A program made the position numbers and the translations under genes. A stretch of DNA of 52,616 nucleotides from a virus (taxonomy: Duplodnaviria > Caudoviricetes): positions 1 through 52,616 of IMG/VR virus record IMGVR_UViG_3300048433_000716; one strand, 5' to 3'. Positions within the stretch are counted from its first letter, which is position 1; each line of letters opens with the position of its first letter. The notes beneath the pieces are model-generated. The model saw nothing but the letters and a program-made list of their open reading frames with translations. It was not told the origin of the DNA and did no database searches. Below are positions 2,149-34,057 of this stretch, piece by piece.

Positions 2149-2772
2149 TTATCCTACTAATAAGTTTAAGTTTGTTTTTCGTTGTTTAGGTTGCTCTACA
2201 TCATTAAATCGCTTTTGCGATAACCAAGTCTTGGCGTGTGGGATAAATCGATCATCTTTCCCTGCCTGCGACTTAGCAAATGATCTTGTCTTATTTATTA
2301 AGTTTTCAAAAGTAATTTCTTTATTCTTCATAGTTATTTGGAACTTTTGTGAAGCTCCAAACTTATTGTCATTAGGTCTGTTTGGATACTCTTTCCAAAA
2401 CAATTCAAATTCCTTACTATATTCTTTTTTATTATGATAGGTTATTGGTGTCGCATTTTGCATAGGGGGTGGGGTGGCATTTTGCGACTGGGTATCTAAA
2501 TTCAATTTATATATGTTACTAGTTTGTCTGTGATTGTTGTTTTCAGTTAGCTGAAATCTTTTCTCAATATCAATAAAGCTCAGCTCTTTCAAACGCTTAA
2601 GTGACCTAATAACTGTATCTGTACTACATTCACATAGCTCTGCAATCTTCTTATGTGAAGGATAGCAAGTGTTATCAGCATCAGTAAAGTTAGCTAATAT
2701 TATTAATATAAGCTTGTCAGTGCTATTACCTACCTTAACTTCTGACGCCCATTTCAACGCTGACCATGACAT
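2149..2772 (-). CDS. Phage replication initiator, N-terminal winged HTH
   Basis: CYPSHKKIAELCECSTDTVIRSLKRL HTH, low-complexity linker, C-terminal FELFWKEYP...HAKTWLSQKRF domain typical of phage initiators. Confidence 0.8.
   Translation of the reverse strand: MSWSALKWASEVKVGNSTDKLILIILANFTDADNTCYPSHKKIAELCECSTDTVIRSLKRLKELSFIDIEKRFQLTENNNHRQTSNIYKLNLDTQSQNATPPPMQNATPITYHNKKEYSKEFELFWKEYPNRPNDNKFGASQKFQITMKNKEITFENLINKTRSFAKSQAGKDDRFIPHAKTWLSQKRFNDVEQPKQRKTNLNLLVG
2453..2485. repeat. Iteron-like direct repeats GCATTTTGC in the initiator gene (putative ori)
   Basis: GCATTTTGC at 2453-2461 and 2477-2485, next to an AT-rich tract at about 2401-2445. Confidence 0.5.
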
Positions 2773-2781
2773 ATAAGTTCT

Positions 2782-3114
2782 CTACCTCAAAACTTCTGTT
2801 ATCAATATTGGTGGATTGTATGTAGCTAGAATTTTCTTCCTCAGCATATAATCCCTTGTCTTAGTGGCTTTAGACTTTACATCCTCCACAACCACTTCAC
2901 CATCTTTTTTATAGCGAAAGTCTGCAGTATACCTACCTATCTTTACGCCATTACACATCAGATCAAACTTTGGATGTATTTCCAAATCTGATATTTCTTT
3001 GGCTCTAAGAAGGTATTCTAACTCAACAAACCTCTTAAGCTCACGCTTACTATCAAAAACCTCACCCTTGTAAGTTTGCTTGATGGCGTTGTATTTGTTT
3101 CTCGTAAAAGTCAT
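2782..3114 (-). CDS. DUF1064-family PD-(D/E)XK endonuclease
   Basis: RNKYNA, FDSKRE, YTADFRY and VEDVKS motifs; start moved to ATG at 3114. Confidence 0.82.
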   Translation of the reverse strand: MTFTRNKYNAIKQTYKGEVFDSKRELKRFVELEYLLRAKEISDLEIHPKFDLMCNGVKIGRYTADFRYKKDGEVVVEDVKSKATKTRDYMLRKKILATYNPPILITEVLR

Positions 3115-3507: not shown

Positions 3508-3708
3508 ATGGCAAAAGGTTACTTAGGTACATATGGAGCAAGAAAGTGCAAAATATGTAAAGGCAATATCGAAATTGTAAATGGATATAGAGATGGTCAC
3601 AATGCTTTGCCTGTGGTTAAAGGTAGATGTTGTAGTGACTGCAACTCAACTGTAGTTATTAAAGCTAGACTAAATCAAATTGAAAAGTTTTTTGAGAAGT
3701 CAGCGTAA
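3508..3708 (+). CDS. Small zinc-finger protein
   Basis: CKIC...GHNALP..GRCCSDCN; AAGGAG RBS. Confidence 0.75.
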   Translation: MAKGYLGTYGARKCKICKGNIEIVNGYRDGHNALPVVKGRCCSDCNSTVVIKARLNQIEKFFEKSA

Positions 3709-4469
3709 TGAAGAGCAACAATCCCTTCGAGGCTCATAACATAGATCATCTGTCACCTAGCAAGATTAACTTGTGGGTGGCAGACCCAGCCCTTTTTATA
3801 GGTACATATCTATGTGGTATGAAAGGTTCTTTTGGTGTAGGTGCATTCAGAGGAACTGCAGTAGAATATGCTTTGGAAAAGAAGCTGAACAAACAAGACT
3901 ATCCACAAAAAGCTATGGATGAGTTTTTGTATGGTAAATTTGATGCAGAGTGTATTGAGCATAATATTTCTATAGAAGACGACAAAGCACAGAAAGAGCG
4001 TAATTCTTTAGAAAGCTACTATAATGTTGCATCAGAAGCATACGAGGACTTTGGTACGCCTACTCATTATCAACAGAAGGTCTACTTTCAACACGAAGAC
4101 TTACCTATACCATTTCTAGGTTATATAGATTTTATGTATGAAAATAGCATTAGAGATTTAAAAACAGTTGGGGCAAGACCATCAAAGTTTACTGAAGCAC
4201 ACCAAAGACAATTAGCAGTATATTCTCACGCTTACCCTGATAAAGAAATGTGGTGTGACTATGTCACCAAAAAAGAAGCTATATCTTTTAAATTACAAAA
4301 CCCAAAAGACAAATTTAAAGAAGTAATTAAGATTTGCTTTGGCTTACAAAAATTCTTAAGTATTAGTAATGATGCTTTTGAACTAGCGTCTATGCTACAT
4401 CCCAACTATGACGATTGGAGATGGAGTGAAGATATGAAACAACAATCAAACAAAATTTGGAGTAACTAA
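3708..4469 (+). CDS. PD-(D/E)XK exonuclease (RecE/Cas4-like recombination nuclease)
   Basis: HLSPS, GYIDF, RDLKT and QLAVY motifs; adjacent to ERF. Confidence 0.85.
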   Translation: MKSNNPFEAHNIDHLSPSKINLWVADPALFIGTYLCGMKGSFGVGAFRGTAVEYALEKKLNKQDYPQKAMDEFLYGKFDAECIEHNISIEDDKAQKERNSLESYYNVASEAYEDFGTPTHYQQKVYFQHEDLPIPFLGYIDFMYENSIRDLKTVGARPSKFTEAHQRQLAVYSHAYPDKEMWCDYVTKKEAISFKLQNPKDKFKEVIKICFGLQKFLSISNDAFELASMLHPNYDDWRWSEDMKQQSNKIWSN

Positions 4470-4471
4470 CA

Positions 4472-5203
4472 ATGAACTACCAATCTGAAAAAACTAATCT
4501 TGTTTTGCAAGCTATAGAAGATGCAAGGCAAGAGTTTTCGCCTTTAGAGAAAAGTGGAGTTAACGCCTTCTTTAAAAATAAAAAGGGTGACCCACACATG
4601 TATAGCACATTAGATAATATATTTGATGCATGTATGCCAGCCTTGCATAAACATAAATTATCTGTGGTGTATCAAGTGCAGATTATGCAAACCACAAACG
4701 CCTTGGAAAATGTACTTACAACTACAATAACTCATTTACCTTCTAATCAGTTTATTACCTCTTGCAGTACTTTGGGCAATCAAAGTGCTAAAAGCCAAGA
4801 TGTAGGTTCAGCTATTACTTATCTTAGAAGATATCAAATACAAGCTATGCTGAACTTAGAAGCTGACTTTGAGGATGATGGTAATTTGGCATCGGGTAAT
4901 AAAGGTGGCGAATCAAACATAATCGATAAAAAAGAAAACAATATTATGCCTAAGCGTAAGTATGTTTTGTTTAATAAGGATGGAAATATTGCTTCATCTG
5001 TATCAGCATTTGGAACTTATCTAGGTGAATTAAATAAAGCGATAACCATGATAAAGGGTAATCACTCTTGTTGTTCTGCGACTATAATTCAGTTGCAAGA
5101 TATTAAATTGTGGGCTGAAGAGCTAGGTGAAAAACATAAAAAAAACGCCACAACCATAATAAAGAAATGTGAACAATATATTAAACTTTTTAAAGGAGAA
5201 TAA
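4472..5203 (+). CDS. erf: ERF-family single-strand annealing protein
   Basis: QDVGSAITYLRRY...EDDGN signature. Confidence 0.88.
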   Translation: MNYQSEKTNLVLQAIEDARQEFSPLEKSGVNAFFKNKKGDPHMYSTLDNIFDACMPALHKHKLSVVYQVQIMQTTNALENVLTTTITHLPSNQFITSCSTLGNQSAKSQDVGSAITYLRRYQIQAMLNLEADFEDDGNLASGNKGGESNIIDKKENNIMPKRKYVLFNKDGNIASSVSAFGTYLGELNKAITMIKGNHSCCSATIIQLQDIKLWAEELGEKHKKNATTIIKKCEQYIKLFKGE

Positions 5204-5204
5204 A

Positions 5205-5615
5205 ATGCAAAAGGATAATACAAATTCTGGAATATTATATAAAAACACTGATGATTGGCAAATTGTACAACAAGGCAAGTTAAACCTTGAGGGTGAAGAG
5301 CACAGAATTATTGGTGTAAAACGTAAAAATAAAGATGGTCAGCCTATGGTTGAGCTTTACAGAGCTATAGGAACTCTGAAGGCAAATGATAGTAAACAGA
5401 CTGATAAATCACCAGACGCTAAAGGTGTAGTTAATAAAATCATGAATAGTGGTGCTATGACTATTTCTGCTTGGAAAGACGTATCTGAGGCAGGGAACGC
5501 CTACACTAGTCTAAAAGCTAGGGAGTTCACTAATAATGAAGATAGCATAGACAATGATCCAACTAGTGAGAAAAATGTACTTTATAACAACAATATAGAA
5601 GATATTGGCTTCTAA
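5205..5615 (+). CDS. Putative single-stranded DNA-binding protein
   Basis: DNTNSGILYKN, PDAKG, ISAWK, acidic tail ending EDIGF; AGGAG RBS before ATG 5205; follows exo-ERF. Confidence 0.6.
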   Translation: MQKDNTNSGILYKNTDDWQIVQQGKLNLEGEEHRIIGVKRKNKDGQPMVELYRAIGTLKANDSKQTDKSPDAKGVVNKIMNSGAMTISAWKDVSEAGNAYTSLKAREFTNNEDSIDNDPTSEKNVLYNNNIEDIGF

Positions 5616-5958
5616 GATGCTAATACCTAAATCTATTAAAATTAAAAACAAAAAGCACCTTATGTTTGTAGCTAAACAAGTATGTTGTCTGAATGGCATA
5701 GCTGCTGATTGGTGTAGGGGCAATGTTCAAGCTCATCATCTTCTGAAGCCATATGAAGGTAAAAGAGGTATGGGTATGAAATCAAGCGACAACAATGCAA
5801 TACCATTATGTTATTATCATCACGCTGAGTTACATGACACTCAAGGTGATGAGGATAATTTTTGGGGCAAGTACGATTTGCACGAAGATTTTGGTAGGGA
5901 TAAGGCTACATATTGGTGGAGTATCTCGCCATATAACCAAGAAAGATTTAAAAAATGA
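5605..5958 (+). CDS. DUF968/Ref-like HNH-type protein
   Basis: CC..., QAHHL, GMGMKSSD, IPLCYYHHAELH. Confidence 0.7.
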   Translation: MASKMLIPKSIKIKNKKHLMFVAKQVCCLNGIAADWCRGNVQAHHLLKPYEGKRGMGMKSSDNNAIPLCYYHHAELHDTQGDEDNFWGKYDLHEDFGRDKATYWWSISPYNQERFKK

Positions 5959-6290
5959 ACGAACAAATAATTTCAGAAAAAGAAGTATCAAAAGCATTAG
6001 ACTATTTAAGAGACTCCGCAGCGGAAGTTGCTAAAGCTAAAGCAGAAAGAATATACTTGGAGGAGTACAGAAAATCACTTAAGGCATTAATAATGAAAGA
6101 CCATTTGGACATATCTGTTTCTGCACAAGAAAGAGAGGCTTATGCCAGTGATGAGTACACAAAACATTTACGAGCAATGCAAATTGCTATAGAAAGAGAT
6201 GAGAAGTTAAGATTTATGAGAATAGCTGCTGAGGCTAAAATTAACGCTTGGCAAACAATGTCAGCTAACTATAGATCAATAAAGTTATAA
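5955..6290 (+). CDS. Conserved helical phage protein
   Basis: 111 aa, coiled-coil character, translationally coupled (ATGA overlap). Confidence 0.75.
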   Translation: MNEQIISEKEVSKALDYLRDSAAEVAKAKAERIYLEEYRKSLKALIMKDHLDISVSAQEREAYASDEYTKHLRAMQIAIERDEKLRFMRIAAEAKINAWQTMSANYRSIKL

Positions 6291-6291
6291 T

Positions 6292-6373
6292 TCCACGCTG
6301 ATCTCTACCTCTGGGCGTGGATAGGGGTAAGTAGGTGGTTTCCTCCAATTCCTTTCTAGCCTACTTACCCTAT
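6292..6373 (+). ncRNA. Two-hairpin sRNA candidate with anti-SD loops
   Basis: Stems TCCACGC/GCGTGGA and TAGGGGTAAGTAGG/CCTACTTACCCTA; loops contain TCTCTACCTC and TTTCCTCCAATTCCTTT; no U-tract. Confidence 0.55.
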
Positions 6374-6393
6374 AATGAAAAAACATTTCTTAA

Positions 6394-6452
6394 GGGTTGA
6401 CATTTGTATCTACAAAAATTATATTAAAAAAATAACGAACAACAAAATGGAG
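6394..6452 (+). promoter_or_regulatory. Early promoter cassette A
   Basis: GGG-TTGACA (6397), 17 bp, TATATT (6420); spacer palindrome TTTGTATCTACAAA; leader AACGAACAACAAAA; GGAG. Confidence 0.8.
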
Positions 6453-6458
6453 ATTAAA

Positions 6459-6806
6459 ATGAGATATTTACAAGTAGAAAGCATTTATGACAAACATGGT
6501 GACAACATTCTTAATAGAAAGAGTGAACACCAAGAGTTAACTTTTAATGTAAATCACTGCAGAGGAACTGCAAAATGTTACCTTATGGAAGACCAAAAAG
6601 AAGATAGGCTTTATATATTATCTACTGGTGCTTGCATCAAATCCCATTACACTGAAGCTGACTACGCTGAGGGTGATAGACTTTCTAAAGAGCTTCCACT
6701 TAATCATGGCGACATAGTCCAAATAGTAGGTCGATTTGGTAAAAAATATAAGGTTCATGTAAATGGCAACTATTCTGACTTAGGTGAACTTATTCCAACA
6801 AACTAA
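6459..6806 (+). CDS. Hypothetical early protein
   Basis: Start moved to ATG 6459 after GGAG; own promoter and terminator. Confidence 0.75.
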   Translation: MRYLQVESIYDKHGDNILNRKSEHQELTFNVNHCRGTAKCYLMEDQKEDRLYILSTGACIKSHYTEADYAEGDRLSKELPLNHGDIVQIVGRFGKKYKVHVNGNYSDLGELIPTN

Positions 6807-6809
6807 AAT

Positions 6810-6834
6810 AAGGGGTTTAATTACCCCTTTTATT
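6810..6834 (+). terminator. Intrinsic terminator
   Basis: AAGGGG-tttaatta-CCCCTT followed by TTATT, directly after the stop codon. Confidence 0.7.
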
Positions 6835-6894
6835 GGGTTGACTTACTAAATTACCTATGCAATAAATAATTAACGATTAACAAAATTAGGAGAA
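6835..6894 (+). promoter_or_regulatory. Early promoter cassette B
   Basis: GGG-TTGACT (6838), weak -10, leader AACGATTAACAAAATTAGGAGA. Confidence 0.6.
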
Positions 6895-6898
6895 TAAA

Positions 6899-7129
6899 AT
6901 GAACGAATTATTACACGATATAAAGGTTTTGGAAAAATTAGAGTACAACCTTAAATCTCATCAATCGCTATATGGCAAGGATAACTACTACATAGCCATG
7001 TCTGTGAAAACTATCAAAAAATCTATCACTGAAAAGAATAAAATTTTAGAGAATTTTGAAAAAGAAAATATGTCATACGCTGACTATGAGGAGCACATGA
7101 AGGGCGTAGGTCTTAACGATGTTGCTTAG
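6899..7129 (+). CDS. Hypothetical early protein
   Basis: 76 aa, AGGAG RBS. Confidence 0.75.
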   Translation: MNELLHDIKVLEKLEYNLKSHQSLYGKDNYYIAMSVKTIKKSITEKNKILENFEKENMSYADYEEHMKGVGLNDVA

Positions 7130-7250
7130 TATCTTAAAATTATTGGGGGTTATAGCTTCAGCTATAGCCACCATGTATTTCTTTTATTATTTATTTTGGT
7201 TTTTGTGCCTAATAGATAATGTTTGTTACAACACTAACTTTGGAGTTTAA
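7119..7250 (+). CDS. Small membrane protein (43 aa, not in ORF track)
   Basis: MLLSILKLLGVIASAIATMYFFYYLFWFLCLIDNVCYNTNFGV; fills the gap between neighbours. Confidence 0.6.
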   Translation: MLLSILKLLGVIASAIATMYFFYYLFWFLCLIDNVCYNTNFGV

Positions 7251-7253
7251 TCA

Positions 7254-7586
7254 ATGAAAAATTATAGAACTGAGCTAATTAAAGGGAGTGCAACCTTTAT
7301 AAAAACAATGGCAAGGAATATAAACGATCATGATATTTTTTCACATATTTCTGATCATTCTAGAAAGATTATAAGATACGCCAACTCTCATAATAAAAAC
7401 TTGTTAAATAAATTTGAAATAAGTGATCTTCTCTATCTAATTGATTCTTTTAGAAGTCATGATGGTTACTATCACGATATGTCAGACGAAAAGTTAGATA
7501 ACCTAGAGGCTAAATTAAAGCTACAAGATAAAGAAGCAAAAGTTACTCAATATGAGAAACAAAAAAGAGAAAACATGTTGGGTTAA
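7254..7586 (+). CDS. Hypothetical protein
   Basis: 110 aa, GGAG RBS. Confidence 0.7.
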   Translation: MKNYRTELIKGSATFIKTMARNINDHDIFSHISDHSRKIIRYANSHNKNLLNKFEISDLLYLIDSFRSHDGYYHDMSDEKLDNLEAKLKLQDKEAKVTQYEKQKRENMLG

Positions 7587-8252: not shown

Positions 8253-8317
8253 GGGGTTGATTTATGTATCTACATATATTACATTAATAAAATAACGAAC
8301 AACAAAATTAGGAGAGA
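8253..8317 (+). promoter_or_regulatory. Early promoter cassette C
   Basis: GGGG-TTGATT (8257), 17 bp, TACATT (8280); palindrome TATGTATCTACATA; leader AACGAACAACAAAATTAGGAGAG; near-copy of cassette A. Confidence 0.75.
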
Positions 8318-8704: not shown

Positions 8705-9618
8705 TGTTAGATACAAAAATGGAAGAAGCGTTACAAGACGTATCATTTAAAATTGATGTGAGGGATATTCAAGGTATCCCTTCACATATGGGCAGAAAAG
8801 TAGTTCGCCTTAATGCCTATGGTCAGCAAGAAGGTGATCCTCTTGGTATCGTAGGTTCTAGATATAAACCTATACACCATATGGATGCTTTTGGTGGAGC
8901 TATAGAATCAATGAAAAATGGTGGTCTAGACTTTACTGATCATGAAATCAAAGTTGACACTTATGAAGATGGTGCAATGGCTAAGATGGAATTATTGCTT
9001 CCTGCACATAACACTAAAGTTGGCGACCACGATTTATCACTAAAGTTTGTAGCTAGAAATAGTTACAACGCTAGATGGAAGTTTCAGTCTTTCTTTGGTT
9101 GGATGAACCATGTATGTTTTAATACGTTAGTAAGTGGTCAAAAGATTGCTTATACTGCTAACAGACATACTACTCATTTCAACGTAGACGCCTCTAACAA
9201 AAAGATACAGAATGCAGTAAGTGCGATTACTAATGAAGCTCAAACTTTCAACAAGTGGTGGGATACTAAAGTAGAGGATGAACAAGTTATCGATCTGTTT
9301 AAATCTACTATTGCAAAAAGCCAAGCTAACGATATTAAAATTGCTAGTGGTCAGTCAGACACTAATAAAAAGCAACTATATCATTTAATGGGCTTATATG
9401 AGGCTGAGGTGGCTCAAATTCATGGAAGGGGTGATTATGGCAGAAATGGTGCTAAAGGCTCTCTATGGTGTGCTTATCAGTCAGCAACTGCTTGGTCTAC
9501 CCACTTAGGTGACGTAAAAGCTAATAGCACAAATAAATATATAGTCGAGCAACGTAGACAAAACGATGTGAGGTCTATGATTAATAGTAACAAGTGGAAA
9601 CAACTTGAAAATGCATAA
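8704..9618 (+). CDS. DUF932/DUF945-family protein
   Basis: LGIVGSRYKPI, NSYNA, VCFNTL, RHT and SLWCAYQSATAWSTH motifs. Confidence 0.8.
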   Translation: MLDTKMEEALQDVSFKIDVRDIQGIPSHMGRKVVRLNAYGQQEGDPLGIVGSRYKPIHHMDAFGGAIESMKNGGLDFTDHEIKVDTYEDGAMAKMELLLPAHNTKVGDHDLSLKFVARNSYNARWKFQSFFGWMNHVCFNTLVSGQKIAYTANRHTTHFNVDASNKKIQNAVSAITNEAQTFNKWWDTKVEDEQVIDLFKSTIAKSQANDIKIASGQSDTNKKQLYHLMGLYEAEVAQIHGRGDYGRNGAKGSLWCAYQSATAWSTHLGDVKANSTNKYIVEQRRQNDVRSMINSNKWKQLENA

Positions 9619-9622
9619 TAAT

Positions 9623-9649
9623 AGGGGAGCGAAAGCTCCCTTTACTTTT
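9623..9649 (+). terminator. Intrinsic terminator
   Basis: GGGAGC-GAAA-GCTCCC followed by TTTACTTTT. Confidence 0.8.
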
Positions 9650-9661
9650 GAGGAGAAGGTT

Positions 9662-10807
9662 ATGGAAGATTTATATGGATACAAAAAAACTATATTAAGA
9701 AGTGAGGTGGAGCTTTCAGATATAGATAAAGAAATATTTAAAAACTTTGATTATAAGTTTGATGGGGTCACTGAGTTTGAGTTACCTCATTTCGAGCCTT
9801 TCAAGGAGGACTTTTCTATTGGCGTTATTTATGGGTCAAGTGGTAGTGGTAAATCCTCTATGCTTGCTCAGTATGGTAAAGAAGAGGAATTGACTTGGGA
9901 TAACAACAGAACCATAGCATCTCATTTTGATAGCGTAGAAGACGCCATAGAGCGATTTGGTGCAGTTGGTCTTAATACTGTTCCAACTTGGGCTAAACCT
10001 CGACATGTATTATCAAATGGTGAAGGCTTTAGATGCGACCTAGCTAGACGTTTAGGTAACGATATTGTTATTGATGAGTTTACTTCAGTTGTAAACAGAG
10101 ATGTAGCTAAGTCATGTTCATTATCTTTATATAAGTATGTAAAGCGTAAAGGGCTTAAGAATATTGTACTAGCCACTTGTCACGATGATATCTTAGAATG
10201 GCTGCAGCCAGATTGGGTATTTAACACTGATGTGAAGCGATTCGCATCAAGGGGGTTAGTTCGGCAACCCATTAAAGTTAAAATTGTCAAGGGGAACAGA
10301 AACCACTGGGAACTATTTAAAAAGCATCACTATCTAAGCGAAGACCTTCCAGCTTCTGCACACTGCTATCTTGCAGTTTGGAACGATAGAATTATTGGGT
10401 TTTCTTCAGTCATGTCTTTGCCTGGTTGGACACCACCTCTTTACGAAGGCGACAAGCGTCTTAAGTGGCGTGAGGCTAGAACAGTAGTCCTTCCAGACTT
10501 TCAAGGGCTAGGGATAGGTGTAAGGCTTTCTGACGCTATTGCAGATATGATGATAGAGAAGAATGTACGTTATTACTCTAAGACCTCACATATTAGAATG
10601 GGTGAATACAGACAAAAGTCACCTCTATGGAGGGCTAGTGCTAGTAATTTAAAAGACAGAAGTAGTGACATACATGACCATAAGAAGCGTCTTATACCTT
10701 TAGAAAGAGATAGAATTTGTTATTCTCACGAATATATAGGCGAAAACAATAAGTCATATGACCCCAAGTATAATCGCCCTGACGATCCACAACAAAGCTT
10801 GTTCTAA
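9662..10807 (+). CDS. ABC-type ATPase fused to GNAT (Mom-like) acyltransferase
   Basis: GSSGSGKS, LSNGE, IVIDEF and TCH motifs, then HHYL and VLPDFQGLGIG; start moved to ATG 9662 after GAGGAG. Confidence 0.85.
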   Translation: MEDLYGYKKTILRSEVELSDIDKEIFKNFDYKFDGVTEFELPHFEPFKEDFSIGVIYGSSGSGKSSMLAQYGKEEELTWDNNRTIASHFDSVEDAIERFGAVGLNTVPTWAKPRHVLSNGEGFRCDLARRLGNDIVIDEFTSVVNRDVAKSCSLSLYKYVKRKGLKNIVLATCHDDILEWLQPDWVFNTDVKRFASRGLVRQPIKVKIVKGNRNHWELFKKHHYLSEDLPASAHCYLAVWNDRIIGFSSVMSLPGWTPPLYEGDKRLKWREARTVVLPDFQGLGIGVRLSDAIADMMIEKNVRYYSKTSHIRMGEYRQKSPLWRASASNLKDRSSDIHDHKKRLIPLERDRICYSHEYIGENNKSYDPKYNRPDDPQQSLF

Positions 10808-11400
10808 TGATATTTGAATATCATAAAGACAATTCTAAATATCTATCTACAAAACTTACGAAGCCTAAAATAAATGTAGATATAATTCATGGTGATAGAA
10901 AGCTATGGGATATATTTAAGAAACACCATTATCTTAGTGAAGATTTACCTGCATCCACAAGATGTTACTTTGCTGTATGGGAGGGCAATATTATTGGATT
11001 TAGTGCTACAATTAGTTTGCCAGGCAAAATACCACCTTTATATGAAGGCGACATAAGAAAAAAATGGAGGGAATGCAGAACTGTAATAATACCAGACTTT
11101 CAAGGATTGGGTATTGGAACTAGATTTTCTGACGCTATAGCTGACATACACATAGAGCAAGGTTATAGATATTTTAGCAAGACATCTCACATGAGGATGG
11201 GGCTATATAGAGAAAAGTCATCTATATGGAAAGCAACAGCGACCAATCTAGCAGACAGATCGAAAAGCACCAAAGGAAAAAGTTGGGCACATCTTACGCT
11301 TGAAAAAGAACGAATATGTTATTCACATGAATATATAGGTAAAGATAGAAAATCCTATAACCCTAAATATAACGCCACTACTCACCCTTTATTGATCTGA
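10807..11400 (+). CDS. Stand-alone GNAT paralog of the preceding C-terminal domain
   Basis: FKKHHYLSEDLPAS, IIPDFQGLGIG, SKTSH, RICYSHEYIG shared with the upstream gene. Confidence 0.85.
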   Translation: MIFEYHKDNSKYLSTKLTKPKINVDIIHGDRKLWDIFKKHHYLSEDLPASTRCYFAVWEGNIIGFSATISLPGKIPPLYEGDIRKKWRECRTVIIPDFQGLGIGTRFSDAIADIHIEQGYRYFSKTSHMRMGLYREKSSIWKATATNLADRSKSTKGKSWAHLTLEKERICYSHEYIGKDRKSYNPKYNATTHPLLI

Positions 11401-12150: not shown

Positions 12151-14163
12151 TTACCTAACACCAATTACCTGTAATAACTTTTGTTTAGTTTCTTCATCTA
12201 GGTCTTTGATGATTGGCTCTATAGCTTGATTAACTTGCTGATCTTCTGCATTTTCTTCAGTGGCTAATGCATCTGTAACTATTGAAGCGTTTTCAGTTAA
12301 ATCACTAGCTTCTTGTACGCCAGCCTTTGCTAATCCTGCTACAAACCTATCTGCAAGTTCATTTATTTTTTGAACAAGTTGTTGCCTTGCTTCATTGTTA
12401 GTAAGAGCATTTCTAAGTAAGTCTTTATCCTCGCTTATCAAAAGCCTAGCCACTTGTGTCATTTGCTCATCATTTAATTGATTTGATTTTGTAGGTATAA
12501 ATTTTTTAAGAAGTTGTACCCCTGCTCCAATATCAGTACCACCAGACGCCAGAACTCTAGTTAATGCATAGGCGTCATCAACTGTACCAACTCGACTTGT
12601 TGCTTTGGTAGTTTCTGCAGTTGGTGAACCACCCATAATTCTTCCTTGTGCCATAATAGAAGCTTTTGCTAGATTAATTTTATCTATTACATTATCTAAG
12701 GCTTCGTCTGGGTATATTTTTTGAAGTATCAGACTTTCTTTTGTATTTAAATCACCTAATTTATTGATAAAATTAACAGATGTGCCACCTTGTTTTTTGC
12801 CTCTTATGGCTGAAGCAACGCCTGCTCTAAAACTATCTATTGCTTCTCTATCACCACTAGCCAATAATCTTTCAAATATAACCTCAGCCTCATCTGCTTG
12901 TTTTGTAAAGATTGATCTTCCAACATCAAAACTTTCTTTGGCTTTCATAATCCTAGCCCAGTTATTTCTTGCTACTGAAAGCTCTGGACTTGCCTCATCT
13001 ATTATACCTCTGAGATTTTTTTCTAAAGAACTTGCCACCTCACCTAACCTACCATCGCCACTTTGATAAAGTTTATTTGCTCTTTCAAGTAGTAATCCTC
13101 TGATATTTTCAGCAGTTTCTAAGTCTACATCTTGAGTTAATTTTAAAACTCCATCTTTTACTTCAAAGGGAGTGCCCTTACCTAACGCAGTCATCAACGA
13201 TCTTATTTTAGGTCTTAGTTGTGGTTGCTTTTGCAATGCTTCTTCAATTGCTAAGTTAATATTGTTACTTCTGAAATTACCAAACTTATTATAAATTTGT
13301 TTGTAGTTGTCACTAGCACCACTCTTGATAGCATTCATAGAGCCAGTTATGTATTTGTATACGTTTCCAATTTGCTCGTTGGGCGATAGGTCTTTTTGTA
13401 AATTACCAAAAACATCTTCCATGCCTTGTTGTTTTCTTGAAACAAGTGATTCAGCTATGATTGGTTTACTCTTTTCAGAAGCGACATAAAAACCCCTAAC
13501 TTCTGCTGCTGCGGTCTCTGAGAGTTCTGGTATTGTTTTACCACTTGCTATTTGCTCAATTATTTCATCTGTAGTCATTCCAGAAGAATTTGCTATTCTT
13601 GCTAATTCGTCTTCTACTGGTTTTGCTAGTTGTCCTTTAATTCTTCTTATAATTGGCTCAGATATCTTACCTATGCCTTCTATCATTTTACCACCAACTT
13701 TTTGTAGTAGTGGGTTTGCTACTGCACCTCCTGCAGTTGAAAGACCAACGTCAACATAGTCTGTGTCACCTTCTTGCCTTCCTAATGAACTTACACCACC
13801 TTGTATAGCTCCTTGTGTCATAAGTTTGCCACCAGTTCCTATGGCGTATCTTCCAACAGTTGCTGGAATAGATGTGCCTGCAGTAAATGGTGCTAACGCT
13901 AGAGCGGGTGCTATTGCCCCACCTATTTCATATTTTAATGAGCCTTCTTTTTCTTGTGCCTTTTTAAGAGCTTCTCTTTCTTCGCCTAATGCCTCGTCAT
14001 AGGTTTCGCTACCTAGTGCAGACCTAACCATTGCAAAGAACTCATCACTAAAGTTCATTAGAGCACCTTGTGCCATAAGCCTAGCTCTATCTGCGAATGT
14101 TAAATCTTGCAGAGCTATTTGAGTATCAAGTAATTTATCTAAGTCGTCTAATTCTGCACTCAT
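12151..14163 (-). CDS. Internal virion / DNA ejection protein
   Basis: 670 aa, Ala/Gly-rich hydrophobic N-terminal third, helical, last of three large genes after the tail genes. Confidence 0.65.
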   Translation of the reverse strand: MSAELDDLDKLLDTQIALQDLTFADRARLMAQGALMNFSDEFFAMVRSALGSETYDEALGEEREALKKAQEKEGSLKYEIGGAIAPALALAPFTAGTSIPATVGRYAIGTGGKLMTQGAIQGGVSSLGRQEGDTDYVDVGLSTAGGAVANPLLQKVGGKMIEGIGKISEPIIRRIKGQLAKPVEDELARIANSSGMTTDEIIEQIASGKTIPELSETAAAEVRGFYVASEKSKPIIAESLVSRKQQGMEDVFGNLQKDLSPNEQIGNVYKYITGSMNAIKSGASDNYKQIYNKFGNFRSNNINLAIEEALQKQPQLRPKIRSLMTALGKGTPFEVKDGVLKLTQDVDLETAENIRGLLLERANKLYQSGDGRLGEVASSLEKNLRGIIDEASPELSVARNNWARIMKAKESFDVGRSIFTKQADEAEVIFERLLASGDREAIDSFRAGVASAIRGKKQGGTSVNFINKLGDLNTKESLILQKIYPDEALDNVIDKINLAKASIMAQGRIMGGSPTAETTKATSRVGTVDDAYALTRVLASGGTDIGAGVQLLKKFIPTKSNQLNDEQMTQVARLLISEDKDLLRNALTNNEARQQLVQKINELADRFVAGLAKAGVQEASDLTENASIVTDALATEENAEDQQVNQAIEPIIKDLDEETKQKLLQVIGVR

Positions 14164-25636: not shown

Positions 25637-26622
25637 TACGCAGTATAACTCCCAGAACCTGTAAACTTCATAATAGTATTACTTCCACTTGTTGTAACTG
25701 TTGGTGAACCAGTTGTTGTGCCTGAATAGTTAGATGTAGGCACACTTAATATTACTACGCCAGAGCCACCTGAGCCACCTCCTGAATTACTGTCAGTAGC
25801 ACCTCCACCACCACCTAGATTAGCAGTGCCAGGTGTCCCAGCAGTTCCTGTTCCTGCGGGTCCACCTCCACCAGAACCTCCAGGACCTTCTCTTACGCCA
25901 CCTCTTCCCGCAGCACCTCCACCACCTGCATAGGTTACTGAGCTTCCAGTTATATTACTTACTGAACCATTACCACCACCTGCTTCGTGTCCACTAGAGT
26001 TACTTCCTGTGTCTCCTACATTACCTGCACCTCCACCACCTCCACCTTGACCAGTGTTAGGACTACTAGTTCCTGCACTACCACCCCCATTGTTTCCTTG
26101 ACTTGGCGATACTGAAGGCACGTTACCTTGTCCTCCAGGTCTTCCTTGAATAGATCCTCCTCCAGACCCACCAGGGTCTGGGGTATAGATGGCGGGTCCA
26201 CCTGCATCAAAAGATATCCCACCTGCACCACCTGCACTTTGGATAGTTGTCAGTCCAGAACCTGATATAGTGGATGTTCCTCCAAATCCTCCATGTGAAG
26301 AGTTAGTTCCACCAGAGCCACCAGCACCAACTTGAACTGAAATTACAGTTCCACCATCTACAGTTTGCGTTGATGTTCTAAATCCACCTGCTCCTGCTCC
26401 AGAAGCTGCAAATCTATTTCCACCTCCTCCTCCTCCTGCAACTATAAGGAAGTTAACGCTATAGGAAGCTGAAGTTCCATAGAAGTCAGCGGCTAGTTCT
26501 ATTTGTCCAGATGCTGGGGCGTTACCTTTGCCATAATATTCTGATAAAGCGATTGGGTTAGAGCCACCAAATTCACCTTGAATATCAGATAAACTAATTT
26601 GACCAGAACTAGGAAGAGGCAT
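25636..26622 (-). CDS. Glycine-rich tail fibre / adhesin protein
   Basis: Phage fibre-like N-terminus SLSDIQGEFGG and many polyglycine runs. Confidence 0.75.
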   Translation of the reverse strand: MPLPSSGQISLSDIQGEFGGSNPIALSEYYGKGNAPASGQIELAADFYGTSASYSVNFLIVAGGGGGGNRFAASGAGAGGFRTSTQTVDGGTVISVQVGAGGSGGTNSSHGGFGGTSTISGSGLTTIQSAGGAGGISFDAGGPAIYTPDPGGSGGGSIQGRPGGQGNVPSVSPSQGNNGGGSAGTSSPNTGQGGGGGGAGNVGDTGSNSSGHEAGGGNGSVSNITGSSVTYAGGGGAAGRGGVREGPGGSGGGGPAGTGTAGTPGTANLGGGGGATDSNSGGGSGGSGVVILSVPTSNYSGTTTGSPTVTTSGSNTIMKFTGSGSYTA

Positions 26623-32609: not shown

Positions 32610-33062
32610 TTATTGGTCAGCAAACACTGGGGCAGTCGCAGAAGTAACAGAACCCATAACTCTATAATTTGTGCTATCAACGCCTATAAATGTCACATCA
32701 AATCCTGCTGGCACATTTATTTGCAAGCTACTGTTTGAGTTTCCATCTGAGAACACAGAACTAATTTCATTGTCAGTGTCTAAGAAAGTTACGCCACCAA
32801 TATAAAAGTTAGCGTTACCAGGTGTTATGAATATAGCGTCTGTTGCATCGGCAGCAGCTCCACCATATACAAATCTGTAGGATACCCCAGCTTCTGGTGC
32901 TGGTAGTGTATATGTGTTGTCTTGACCACCATCTGGAACAAAGTTAATTCTTCCACCATGTGTTAATTTTGTAATTGTAATGTCACCATCAGCAAGTTCT
33001 ACTGGGGCAACTTGAAATCCATTGTTAGATATAACTGGACCTGTAAATGTTGTATTAGCCAT
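32610..33062 (-). CDS. Minor capsid / decoration-like protein
   Basis: MANTTFTGPV start, TYTLPAP motif, directly after MCP. Confidence 0.6.
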   Translation of the reverse strand: MANTTFTGPVISNNGFQVAPVELADGDITITKLTHGGRINFVPDGGQDNTYTLPAPEAGVSYRFVYGGAAADATDAIFITPGNANFYIGGVTFLDTDNEISSVFSDGNSNSSLQINVPAGFDVTFIGVDSTNYRVMGSVTSATAPVFADQ

Positions 33063-33070
33063 ATTATTCT

Positions 33071-33106
33071 CCTTGTCGTGGCTAGTGTCTGCTTATGCAG
33101 TCAAGG
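33071..33106 (-). ncRNA. Structured element downstream of MCP (Mu-gpT-DE-like)
   Basis: CCTTG/CAAGG outer stem, CTGC-ataa-GCAG hairpin, located after a Mu gpT-like gene. Confidence 0.5.
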
Positions 33107-33108
33107 TT

Positions 33109-33141
33109 AAAAGTAAAAGGAGAGGAGACTAGCCCCTCTCC
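33109..33141 (-). terminator. Intrinsic terminator after MCP
   Basis: Minus strand GGAGAGGGG-ctagt-CTCCTCTCC followed by TTTTACTTTT. Confidence 0.85.
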
Positions 33142-33154
33142 ATGTGCGAGGTTC

Positions 33155-34057
33155 TTATGCTGCACCTTCTGTGCCAAAAACACCACGCCAGTCAGTGAAA
33201 CCAAAAGAATATCTTTCTCTCACTTTATAACGAATGTTTCCAGTCTCGAAGTCGCCTTCCATGCCTTTTTTCATTGGGCTTCTTTGGAACATCTTAAGTC
33301 CATCAGGCACATCAGTCTTAACAAAGAATGCATCACTGTCTGTTAATCTTCTCATCACATGATAGCCTTGTGGTAAGTATCCACCAGACTTAATAGCGTT
33401 GAGATCGTTATCAGCAGTTCCAGTTCTTAACTGACTCTCAAGTAATCTTTCAGCTACGAAAGTATAAGCAGTTGGGATAATAAGCATTGTGCCTTGTGCA
33501 GCAATTCTTAATCCTCTGTCATCCTTCATATCTGCAATGTTTATCAAGATGCTCTCTAAAGAAGTCTCTGATAAATCAGCCGCAGTAGCTAAAGTGTTAC
33601 TTTGGTTGCCATTTTGGGTTGGGTGTGATGTGCTCAATAATGAAACGCCATCGCCACCATTTGTTGAAGTAGCGTTATTTAAAACATTTGCTGCTTTGAT
33701 TTCTTTAGTAGAAGCCATAGACCTAGCTAATGCTTTTGTATAACGTGATGCAATTGACCCATAAAGACCATCTTCTTCAGCTTCTTCAGTAACTGAGAAA
33801 GCTAAAGCAATAGTTTCATGCTGATATCTAGCAGTCCACTGTTGAGATGCACTATCGTAACTTACGCTTGCACCTTCGTCTTTAGTTGGAGCCGCTCCAA
33901 AACCTGTCAACAATACATCTTCTTCAAATGCTTTTTGAGATGTGTTGCTTTCAAATACTGCAGCATACTCTGGTGGGTAACTGTCATATTCTAAGCCGAA
34001 CAAGGTATTCAAACCAGGCTCAAGCATTTTTGCAAATTGTGCTCTATTCATTGCCAT
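33155..34057 (-). CDS. Major capsid protein (Mu gpT-like, HK97 fold)
   Basis: LEPGLNTLFGLEY, GDFETGNIRYKVRERYSFGFTDWRG motifs; followed by a terminator. Confidence 0.9.
   Translation of the reverse strand: MAMNRAQFAKMLEPGLNTLFGLEYDSYPPEYAAVFESNTSQKAFEEDVLLTGFGAAPTKDEGASVSYDSASQQWTARYQHETIALAFSVTEEAEEDGLYGSIASRYTKALARSMASTKEIKAANVLNNATSTNGGDGVSLLSTSHPTQNGNQSNTLATAADLSETSLESILINIADMKDDRGLRIAAQGTMLIIPTAYTFVAERLLESQLRTGTADNDLNAIKSGGYLPQGYHVMRRLTDSDAFFVKTDVPDGLKMFQRSPMKKGMEGDFETGNIRYKVRERYSFGFTDWRGVFGTEGAA

Follow-up and report, generated by a model that had tools for sequence, protein, structure and literature searches.

A two-hairpin RNA motif in the 3' untranslated tail of a recombination operon of uncultured marine phages

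Directly after the last gene of the early rightward recombination operon of an uncultured marine phage lies an approximately 80-nt non-coding RNA module, which is the 3' untranslated tail of that operon and a genuine structured RNA motif, new in that it is absent from Rfam 15. Judged from the comparison of related sequences, its two hairpins are real and their fold is kept by selection on the plus strand RNA; the functional RNA is the plus strand read-through transcript of the recombination operon. Our tentative preference, held short of calling it probable, is that the element would serve as an accessory 3'-UTR-derived riboregulator, operating like the CcsR/cuckoo RNAs without being a member of that family. 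To our knowledge, hardly any regulatory RNAs have been described from uncultured marine phages, and the viruses bearing this element are related to the abundant marine roseophages and pelagiphages.

The window, i.e. the whole stretch of DNA analyzed, corresponds to a complete virus record from IMG/VR, 52,616 bp long and with 37% GC. Its relevant genes and the parts of the element are the following.

375-2144, leftward: primase/helicase
2149-2772, minus strand: replication initiator, with its ATG at 2772
2782-3114, minus strand: DUF1064 gene, directly upstream of the initiator gene with a 9-nt gap
First in the rightward block: small zinc-ribbon ORF
3708-4469, rightward block: exonuclease
4472-5203, rightward block: Erf annealing protein
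Between Erf and orf111, rightward block: SSB, then an HNH/DUF968 protein
5955-6290, plus strand: orf111 (111 aa), last gene of the rightward exo-Erf-SSB-HNH block, with its TAA stop at 6288-6290
6292-6321, plus strand: hairpin 1, with a 7-bp stem (6292-6298/6315-6321) and, in the window, the additional pair U6299.G6314
6299-6314, plus strand: loop 1, 12-16 nt across versions
6319-6328, plus strand: junction GGATAG(R)GGT, which joins the two helices with 0-2 unpaired bases
6324-6371, plus strand: hairpin 2, with a 12-bp stem (6324-6335/6360-6371) whose 5' arm is purine-rich and 3' arm pyrimidine-rich
6336-6359, plus strand: loop 2, 14-24 nt across versions
Minus strand: head, portal and terminase genes

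The first-pass annotation of this DNA had described two adjacent hairpins after the stop of 5955-6290, with no U-tract on either strand, and both observations are correct. The two stems are present, a terminator scan has no entry for them, and hairpin 2 is followed by AUAAUGAAAAAACAUUU, there being no U-tract 3' of the stem in any of the 13 versions of the element that we collected. The TAA stop of orf111 lies 1 nt before hairpin 1 in all of these. In the window, the element has a predicted minimum free energy of -33.7 kcal/mol, compared to -21.5 +/- 3.5 for shuffled sequences (z -3.5), and 1 out of 200 shuffles folds as stably. Searches of Rfam 15, with the whole window at gathering thresholds and with positions 6200-6470 at E <= 10, returned no family for the element, and a tRNA/tmRNA scan found none, so that it is neither a tRNA nor a tmRNA. 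The upstream gene, orf111, has no Pfam family (E <= 0.01) and no PHROG family. Since loop lengths differ between versions by non-multiples of three, the element is non-coding. A read-through extension of orf111 was considered and dropped: by eye, the frame downstream of the stop stays open over 23 codons in the window and closes after 10 in one relative (L008). A small ORF or a separate promoter within the element was likewise discarded, as neither is conserved by eye.

Homologs of orf111 were collected at 36 loci from viral contigs and from the best 80 of 494 metagenome matches, and the 13 distinct element versions, all from related uncultured marine phage contigs, were aligned over 86 columns. 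Every one of the 247 stem cells in this alignment (13 versions, 7 + 12 bp) forms a standard pair. Compensatory double changes were found in 9 of the 19 pairs (38 cells), namely in four of the seven pairs of hairpin 1, where 100% of the cells are paired, and in five of the 12 pairs of hairpin 2. The covariation score was 0.459, compared to 0.209 in shuffled alignments, and none of 500 shuffles attained it. As a control, partner columns were slid by 1-3 positions, upon which only 38-47% of the cells remained paired, and RNAalifold recovered the same fold when the structure was not supplied. Mean pairwise identity over the 78 pairs of versions was 77% in the stem columns and 66% at third codon positions of the adjacent gene; as the stems diverge nearly as fast as third codon positions while no pair is lost, the pairing must be actively maintained. 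The strand is indicated by two further features. The non-Watson-Crick stem cells comprise 12 G.U and no A.C on the plus strand, and a covariance model trained on the aligned versions gives 75-87 bits for the plus strand but at most 19 bits for the minus strand at the same place. With all wobbles being G.U on the plus strand, and with strand-specific model scores, the functional molecule is the plus strand RNA. A minus strand RNA with GGA loops, of the CsrA-sponge type, was rejected on account of these wobbles. The motif is compact and its comparative support unusually clean, in that all pairs are kept under near-neutral sequence drift.

Apart from the variable R, the junction GGAUAG(R)GGU is invariant in all 13 versions. 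In one version (L074), hairpin 1 is of one type and hairpin 2, together with its loop, of the type seen in the window; this mosaic suggests modular exchange at the inter-hairpin junction. In four other loci (L008, L009, L071 and L072), loop 2 opens with 9 nt (UUUUUUAUU) that form a perfect complement to AAUAAAAAA directly 3' of the hairpin, which would allow an H-type pseudoknot. Such a pseudoknot, joining the U-run of loop 2 to the A-tract behind it, was considered and dropped, as by eye the window version lacks it.

The loops follow a different rule than the stems. They had been noted as pyrimidine-rich, which is correct in the window (69% in loop 1 and 75% in loop 2) and ranges over the versions from 62 to 77% in loop 1 and from 53 to 86% in loop 2, while the background in the other plus strand spacers of this phage is 45%. 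Counting each distinct loop type once, 47 out of 66 positions in the five loop-1 types are pyrimidines (p = 2e-5 against the background), as are 71 out of 97 in the five loop-2 types (p = 3e-8). Going by these versions, the loops are constrained in kind, i.e. long and pyrimidine-rich, and not in sequence. Loop 1 has the rough consensus GUCUYA..MCU and lacks CCUCC in all 13 versions; loop 2 contains UUCC in 12, UCCU in nine and CCUCC in six of the 13. Pairing with the Shine-Dalgarno (SD) consensus is stronger for loop 2 than for 199 out of 200 shuffles of itself, whereas loop 1 shows no excess over its composition (73 out of 200 shuffles equal it); as the versions are related, these shuffle figures are indicative and not probabilities. 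The proposal that the element is an anti-SD small RNA therefore stands in part. A structured plus strand RNA, co-transcribed with the upstream operon and equipped with pyrimidine-rich loops and a UUCC/UCCU/CCUCC core in loop 2, agrees with the data, while the initiator target proposed for it does not. We also dropped the idea that loop 2 pairs in cis with AAGAAAG at the start of orf111, since this start region is identical in relatives that have the element and in those that lack it, and 8 of the 13 loops do not contain the motif.

The initiator target had been proposed from a 10-nt identity. As stated there, TCTCTACCTC occurs exactly twice in the window, at 6302-6311 in loop 1 and at 2779-2788, the latter copy being situated at -7 to -16 of the minus strand ATG at 2772. 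Equally correct is the match of loop 2 to the ribosome binding site of 37708-37962, as TTTCCTCC at 37965 is the complement of AAGGAGGAAA. This 8-mer is, however, found at three sites in the window (6339, 37965 and 51379), a number that is reached in 31 out of 100 shuffles, and loop 2 has two 10-nt complements within coding sequence. When the two loops were shuffled at constant composition and compared to any start-codon window of the genome, a perfect complement of at least 10 nt turned up in 244 out of 2000 trials (P = 0.12). The loop-to-initiator match is at chance level and looks like a coincidence, and a loop-to-RBS complementarity of about 10 nt is to be expected by chance for any pyrimidine-rich loop.

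We give scarcely any credence to the idea that loop 1 binds GAGGUAGAGA, situated upstream of the initiator gene (2149-2772, minus strand), and thereby ties repression of replication initiation to the recombination operon. It can draw on the perfect 10-nt complement itself, on the initiator start region being the best predicted loop-1 duplex in the window genome (-17.7 kcal/mol), and on one close relative (L056) with the same loop 1 and the same upstream sequence as the window. The match is nevertheless at chance level, and it does not co-vary in relatives, where loop 1 and the initiator upstream region change independently. TCTCTACCTC is found in loop 1 of the window's subgroup only. L051 and L053 have one upstream region (...GCAGGGGAGCUUAUAUG) in common and L055 and L058 a third one (...AAGGGGAAAUAUAUG), with differing loop 1 sequences in either case, and in these four relatives, all with a different loop 1 or upstream region, the complementarity between the two is no longer than 4-6 nt. 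In a 99%-complete relative (G001), complements of loop 1 are nowhere longer than 8 nt, and in a 96%-complete record (G002) the window's loop 1 is present while no initiator homolog was found. The GAGG of the initiator-side 10-mer is, furthermore, 12 nt away from the ATG and within the end of the DUF1064 gene, whose TAG stop (gene 2782-3114) is spanned by the 10-mer; this position of the stop makes translational coupling to the initiator plausible. Repression of the phage's own initiator by an anti-SD loop, as originally inferred, thus finds no support. If the element is a riboregulator, its target or targets are probably not the phage initiator. A wider comparison of the start regions of 47 orthologous gene trios from three near-complete genomes gave no conserved target beyond chance.

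Among close relatives, defined by an orf111 protein identity of 74% or more, the element is present in 9 out of 12 viral loci and 8 out of 14 metagenome loci, one of these eight being truncated where its contig stops; three of the metagenome records are duplicates of viral ones. Close relatives that lack the element have the A-tract and the promoter immediately after the stop codon, and in the more distant loci inspected the element was found in 0 out of 48. When presence and absence are mapped on a 22-row tree of orf111, four changes are needed, at least two of which are forced by well-supported branches. As far as these loci tell, the element is accessory, in that close relatives without it appear to manage. 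A covariance-model search found a single copy per genome in five whole records and no copy at other positions in 764 kb of related loci, and two pattern scans covering 2.9 million viral contigs recovered the element only in the orf111 context. The pattern-scan matches in L047-L050, L057, L059 and L060 were set aside as chance occurrences in coding DNA, as was a 20.9-bit covariance-model match in L059, which is antisense inside an ORF. Yet another match, in the unrelated viral contig L062, is an unrelated iteron-like hairpin, around which (13800-13930) four iteron-like GGATAGG(G) repeats are found. A scan of genome contigs gave only one distant protein homolog, in a Limnohabitans MAG, in which the element is absent.

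The element is flanked by direct repeats, namely TATAAT...TATAAT in the window (6284-6291 and 6368-6376) and TTGTAAT...TTGTAAT in L007 and L012. Relatives lacking the element resemble precise deletions between these flanking repeats, which could reflect slippage across the hairpins. A feature acting at the DNA level, such as a hairpin-bearing insertion (a miniature transposon or REP-like sequence), a protein operator or a single-strand DNA signal, would account for the presence/absence polymorphism with exact boundaries and short flanking repeats, for the repeated gain or loss on the tree and for the mixing of hairpin types in L074. It is nonetheless a very improbable explanation: the element keeps to a single genomic position in all of the above scans, there are no terminal inverted repeats, the arm spacing of 14 to 24 nt is unfit for a dimeric operator, and the strand-asymmetric G.U wobbles, together with the lack of any broken pair, indicate that selection acts on an RNA fold.

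The explanations at the RNA level have to be weighed against the transcriptional signals around the element, which are as follows.

6397-6425, plus strand: sigma-70-type promoter TTGACA-17-TATATT with 11 out of 12 consensus matches, starting 23 nt after hairpin 2
6810-6829, plus strand: canonical terminator, AAGGGGU-loop-ACCCCUU + UUAUU, between the stop of 6459-6806 and another GGGTTGAC promoter
7144-7173, plus strand: strong hairpin GGGGGUUAUAGC-UUCA-GCUAUAGCCACC with a U-rich tail
Within 33058-33158, minus strand: terminator GGAGAGGGG/CUCCUCUCC + UUUUACUUUU

The promoter at 6397-6425, which was missing from the first-pass annotation, drives the next gene, 6459-6806 (likely start 6459), and is conserved in relatives both with and without the element. 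The hairpin at 7144-7173 has counterparts, with stem changes, in 15 out of 20 loci scanned, and it is situated inside a possible 43-aa hydrophobic ORF (7119-7250), meaning that it could represent a terminator, coding constraint or both. No correlation was found between the presence of the element and downstream terminators. Intrinsic terminators have a GC-rich stem, a short loop of about 3-8 nt and a U-tract directly 3'. The canonical terminators of this genome agree with this in having loops of 4-6 nt and U-tails, whereas the element has no U-tract, two helices and large, composition-constrained loops. Although it resembles terminators in that its GC-rich hairpins come immediately behind the final stop codon and ahead of the following promoter, the element was therefore rejected as a canonical intrinsic terminator, its loops being 12-24 nt long and not followed by a U-run. 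In a relative with 57% protein identity (L095, around 1780-1900), the position of the element is instead taken by a textbook terminator, GGCCCUGC-UUUAU-GCGGGGUC + UUUUUU, before a TTGACA promoter.

The main rival to a riboregulator is a passive operon-end structure acting in cis, i.e. a 3' exonuclease barrier and/or a weak, non-canonical attenuator, which would stabilize the mRNA of the recombination operon and keep read-through transcription away from the strong downstream promoter; we rate it as a real possibility, though one that we doubt. The layout is what one would expect from such a structure: hairpin 2 ends 20-23 nt before the -35 box in most versions, the next intergenic gap is arranged in the same way with the terminator at 6810-6829 followed by its GGGTTGAC promoter, a canonical hairpin with a U-run occupies the equivalent place in L095, and dispensability suits a modulatory role. 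At most a weak hint is added by metatranscriptome data: among 23 runs, six rows are of RNA type, with small shares, and the contigs of four of these were compared to the window. The contigs of three of these four runs, representing three studies, cover orf111 and stop at 6295-6320, although RNA-library contigs break at variable sites, may contain DNA, and show neither transcript ends nor strand. Against a passive structure stand the missing U-tract, the invariant junction, which it leaves unexplained, and the 12-24 nt loops, which destabilize a hairpin and are unneeded for a barrier and whose pyrimidine bias is still maintained. In addition, one contig of the RNA-library run X18 spans the end of an L007-type hairpin 2 (its final 15 nt), the promoter and the next gene; it may derive from DNA, but if it derives from RNA, any termination at the element is incomplete. 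A related option is a put- or nut-like RNA, with nascent hairpins that bind polymerase or a protein and bring about read-through of the terminators at 6810 and 7144. The put RNA of phage HK022 binds the zinc-binding domain of the RNA polymerase beta' subunit and suppresses termination in cis. Like putL and putR as described in PMC9378689, the element would be a nascent RNA of about 70-80 nt that folds into two neighboring stem-loops, belongs to an early phage operon and precedes terminators (here the first strong terminator-like hairpins), and an invariant junction with constrained loops would suit contact with a protein or polymerase. We still consider this option improbable. The element is not promoter-proximal, lying about 2.9 kb from the presumed early promoter, it has no sequence likeness to put or to any Rfam family, and close relatives do without it even where they retain the terminator, the homolog of the 7144 hairpin being present in five out of seven element-less loci scanned (L006, L013, L067, L068 and L076). 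An essential antiterminator should not, moreover, be lost repeatedly, as the four changes on the tree would imply.

The riboregulator that we tentatively favor would find its closest models in the cuckoo/CcsR RNAs. These are freed from a co-transcript by RNase E, are bound by Hfq and repress targets through anti-SD loops. The family is described in PMC4615179 as having 2-4 adjacent hairpins of 24-50 nt with loops of 9-27 nt, and according to the accounts in PMC8034643 and PMC4615179, the two-hairpin CcsR RNAs, with anti-SD loops, are cut by RNase E from the ccaF1 3' UTR in Rhodobacter/Rhodobacterales. The element, with hairpins of 26-30 and 38-48 nt and loops of 12-16 and 14-24 nt, is within the family ranges so described; both it and the family, as portrayed in the same two papers, have stems that are highly variable through compensatory changes, C/U-rich, anti-SD-like loops, and a location in the 3' UTR of a small upstream ORF in the same orientation. 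The phage structural genes, moreover, point to an alphaproteobacterial host. Membership of the family was all the same rejected, on motif, covariance models and DUF1127 context. The defining loop motif, CCUCCUCCC, is found in none of the 13 versions, in loop 1 and loop 2 alike; the ar14 model (RF02344) gives no match at E <= 10, and the CcsR1 model (RF02791) matches only 25849-25910 (8 and 5 bits), away from the element. The upstream ORF is not DUF1127, whereas the CIN1 context is an adjacent DUF1127 ORF. The element also differs in being phage-borne and single-copy, in having no terminator after it and in its invariant inter-hairpin junction.

In the mechanism we envisage, the stable double hairpin would survive when the read-through transcript of the operon is processed or degraded in the 3'-to-5' direction, and its exposed loops would pair with purine-rich, SD-like stretches in other RNAs and thereby lower the translation of these, with the UUCC/CCUCC core of loop 2 as the most likely contact. 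Such a riboregulator is favored by the conservation of every stem pair in a plus strand fold, by the selected pyrimidine bias of the loops together with the SD pairing of loop 2, and by the fact that the same genome has ordinary small-loop, U-tailed terminators (6810-6829, 7144-7173 and near 33100 on the minus strand). The suggested alphaproteobacterial host also fits, as the processing of two-hairpin anti-SD RNAs from a 3' UTR is described for Rhodobacterales (PMC8034643, PMC4615179). What speaks against it is that no conserved target emerged from the 47 orthologous trios, that loop 1 shows no SD-pairing excess, that close relatives lacking the element apparently manage, and that the element has no 3' U-tail. 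Hfq-dependent sRNAs usually have such a tail.

As to the host, the large terminase subunit (TerL) of the window phage is 76.7% identical to that of roseophages CRP-901/902, which PMC10149686 presents as infecting the CHAB-I-5 Roseobacter lineage and classes with pelagiphages HTVC023P/027P. Owing to this similarity, the host is probably alphaproteobacterial, and possibly a member of the Rhodobacterales, as far as phage sequences can indicate. A point on the other side is the GC content, which is 37% in the window phage and 41-49% in the CRP-901 group. The early region of CRP-901 carries different genes from that of the window, so that there is no homologous site to compare, and a nucleotide search of isolated phages with window positions 5000-7500 gave no match.

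It is conceivable, though in our judgment doubtful, that the element represents the first phage-borne counterpart of the alphaproteobacterial two-hairpin anti-SD riboregulators, carried by an abundant group of marine viruses related to roseophages and pelagiphages, released from a recombination-operon transcript and with fast-evolving pyrimidine loops that would re-program host or phage translation. If so, the loop versions would reflect different targets or hosts. A riboregulator of any such kind would mean that phages have their own versions of host-type anti-SD RNAs, while a 3'-end element without a U-tract would show how these phages partition early transcription units. Either way, the motif is suited to RNA family libraries.

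Some additional features were found in the vicinity. Promoters of the GGGTTGAC class (-35 region) are located at 6394-6425, 6835-6870 and 8255-8290 on the plus strand, where they head successive small transcription units, and TGTATCTACA has four occurrences in the window. The promoters at 6397 and 8255 have spacer palindromes, TTTGTA-TC-TACAAA and TATGTA-TC-TACATA, respectively, which are likely the operator for a dimeric phage regulator. In L007 (3440-3530) and L013 (1580-1680), a long conserved leader (...AGUCGUUUUGAGAGUUGCUCCCAG...GCGAGACAUUUUC...), absent from the window, follows the promoter and precedes the next gene, and is possibly a second structured RNA. Lastly, two adjoining plus strand ORFs at 9605-11400 both match PHROG 11143, the first of them also having a GNAT acetyltransferase domain; acetyltransferases are mentioned in PMC10149686 as auxiliary genes in CRP-901-type phages.
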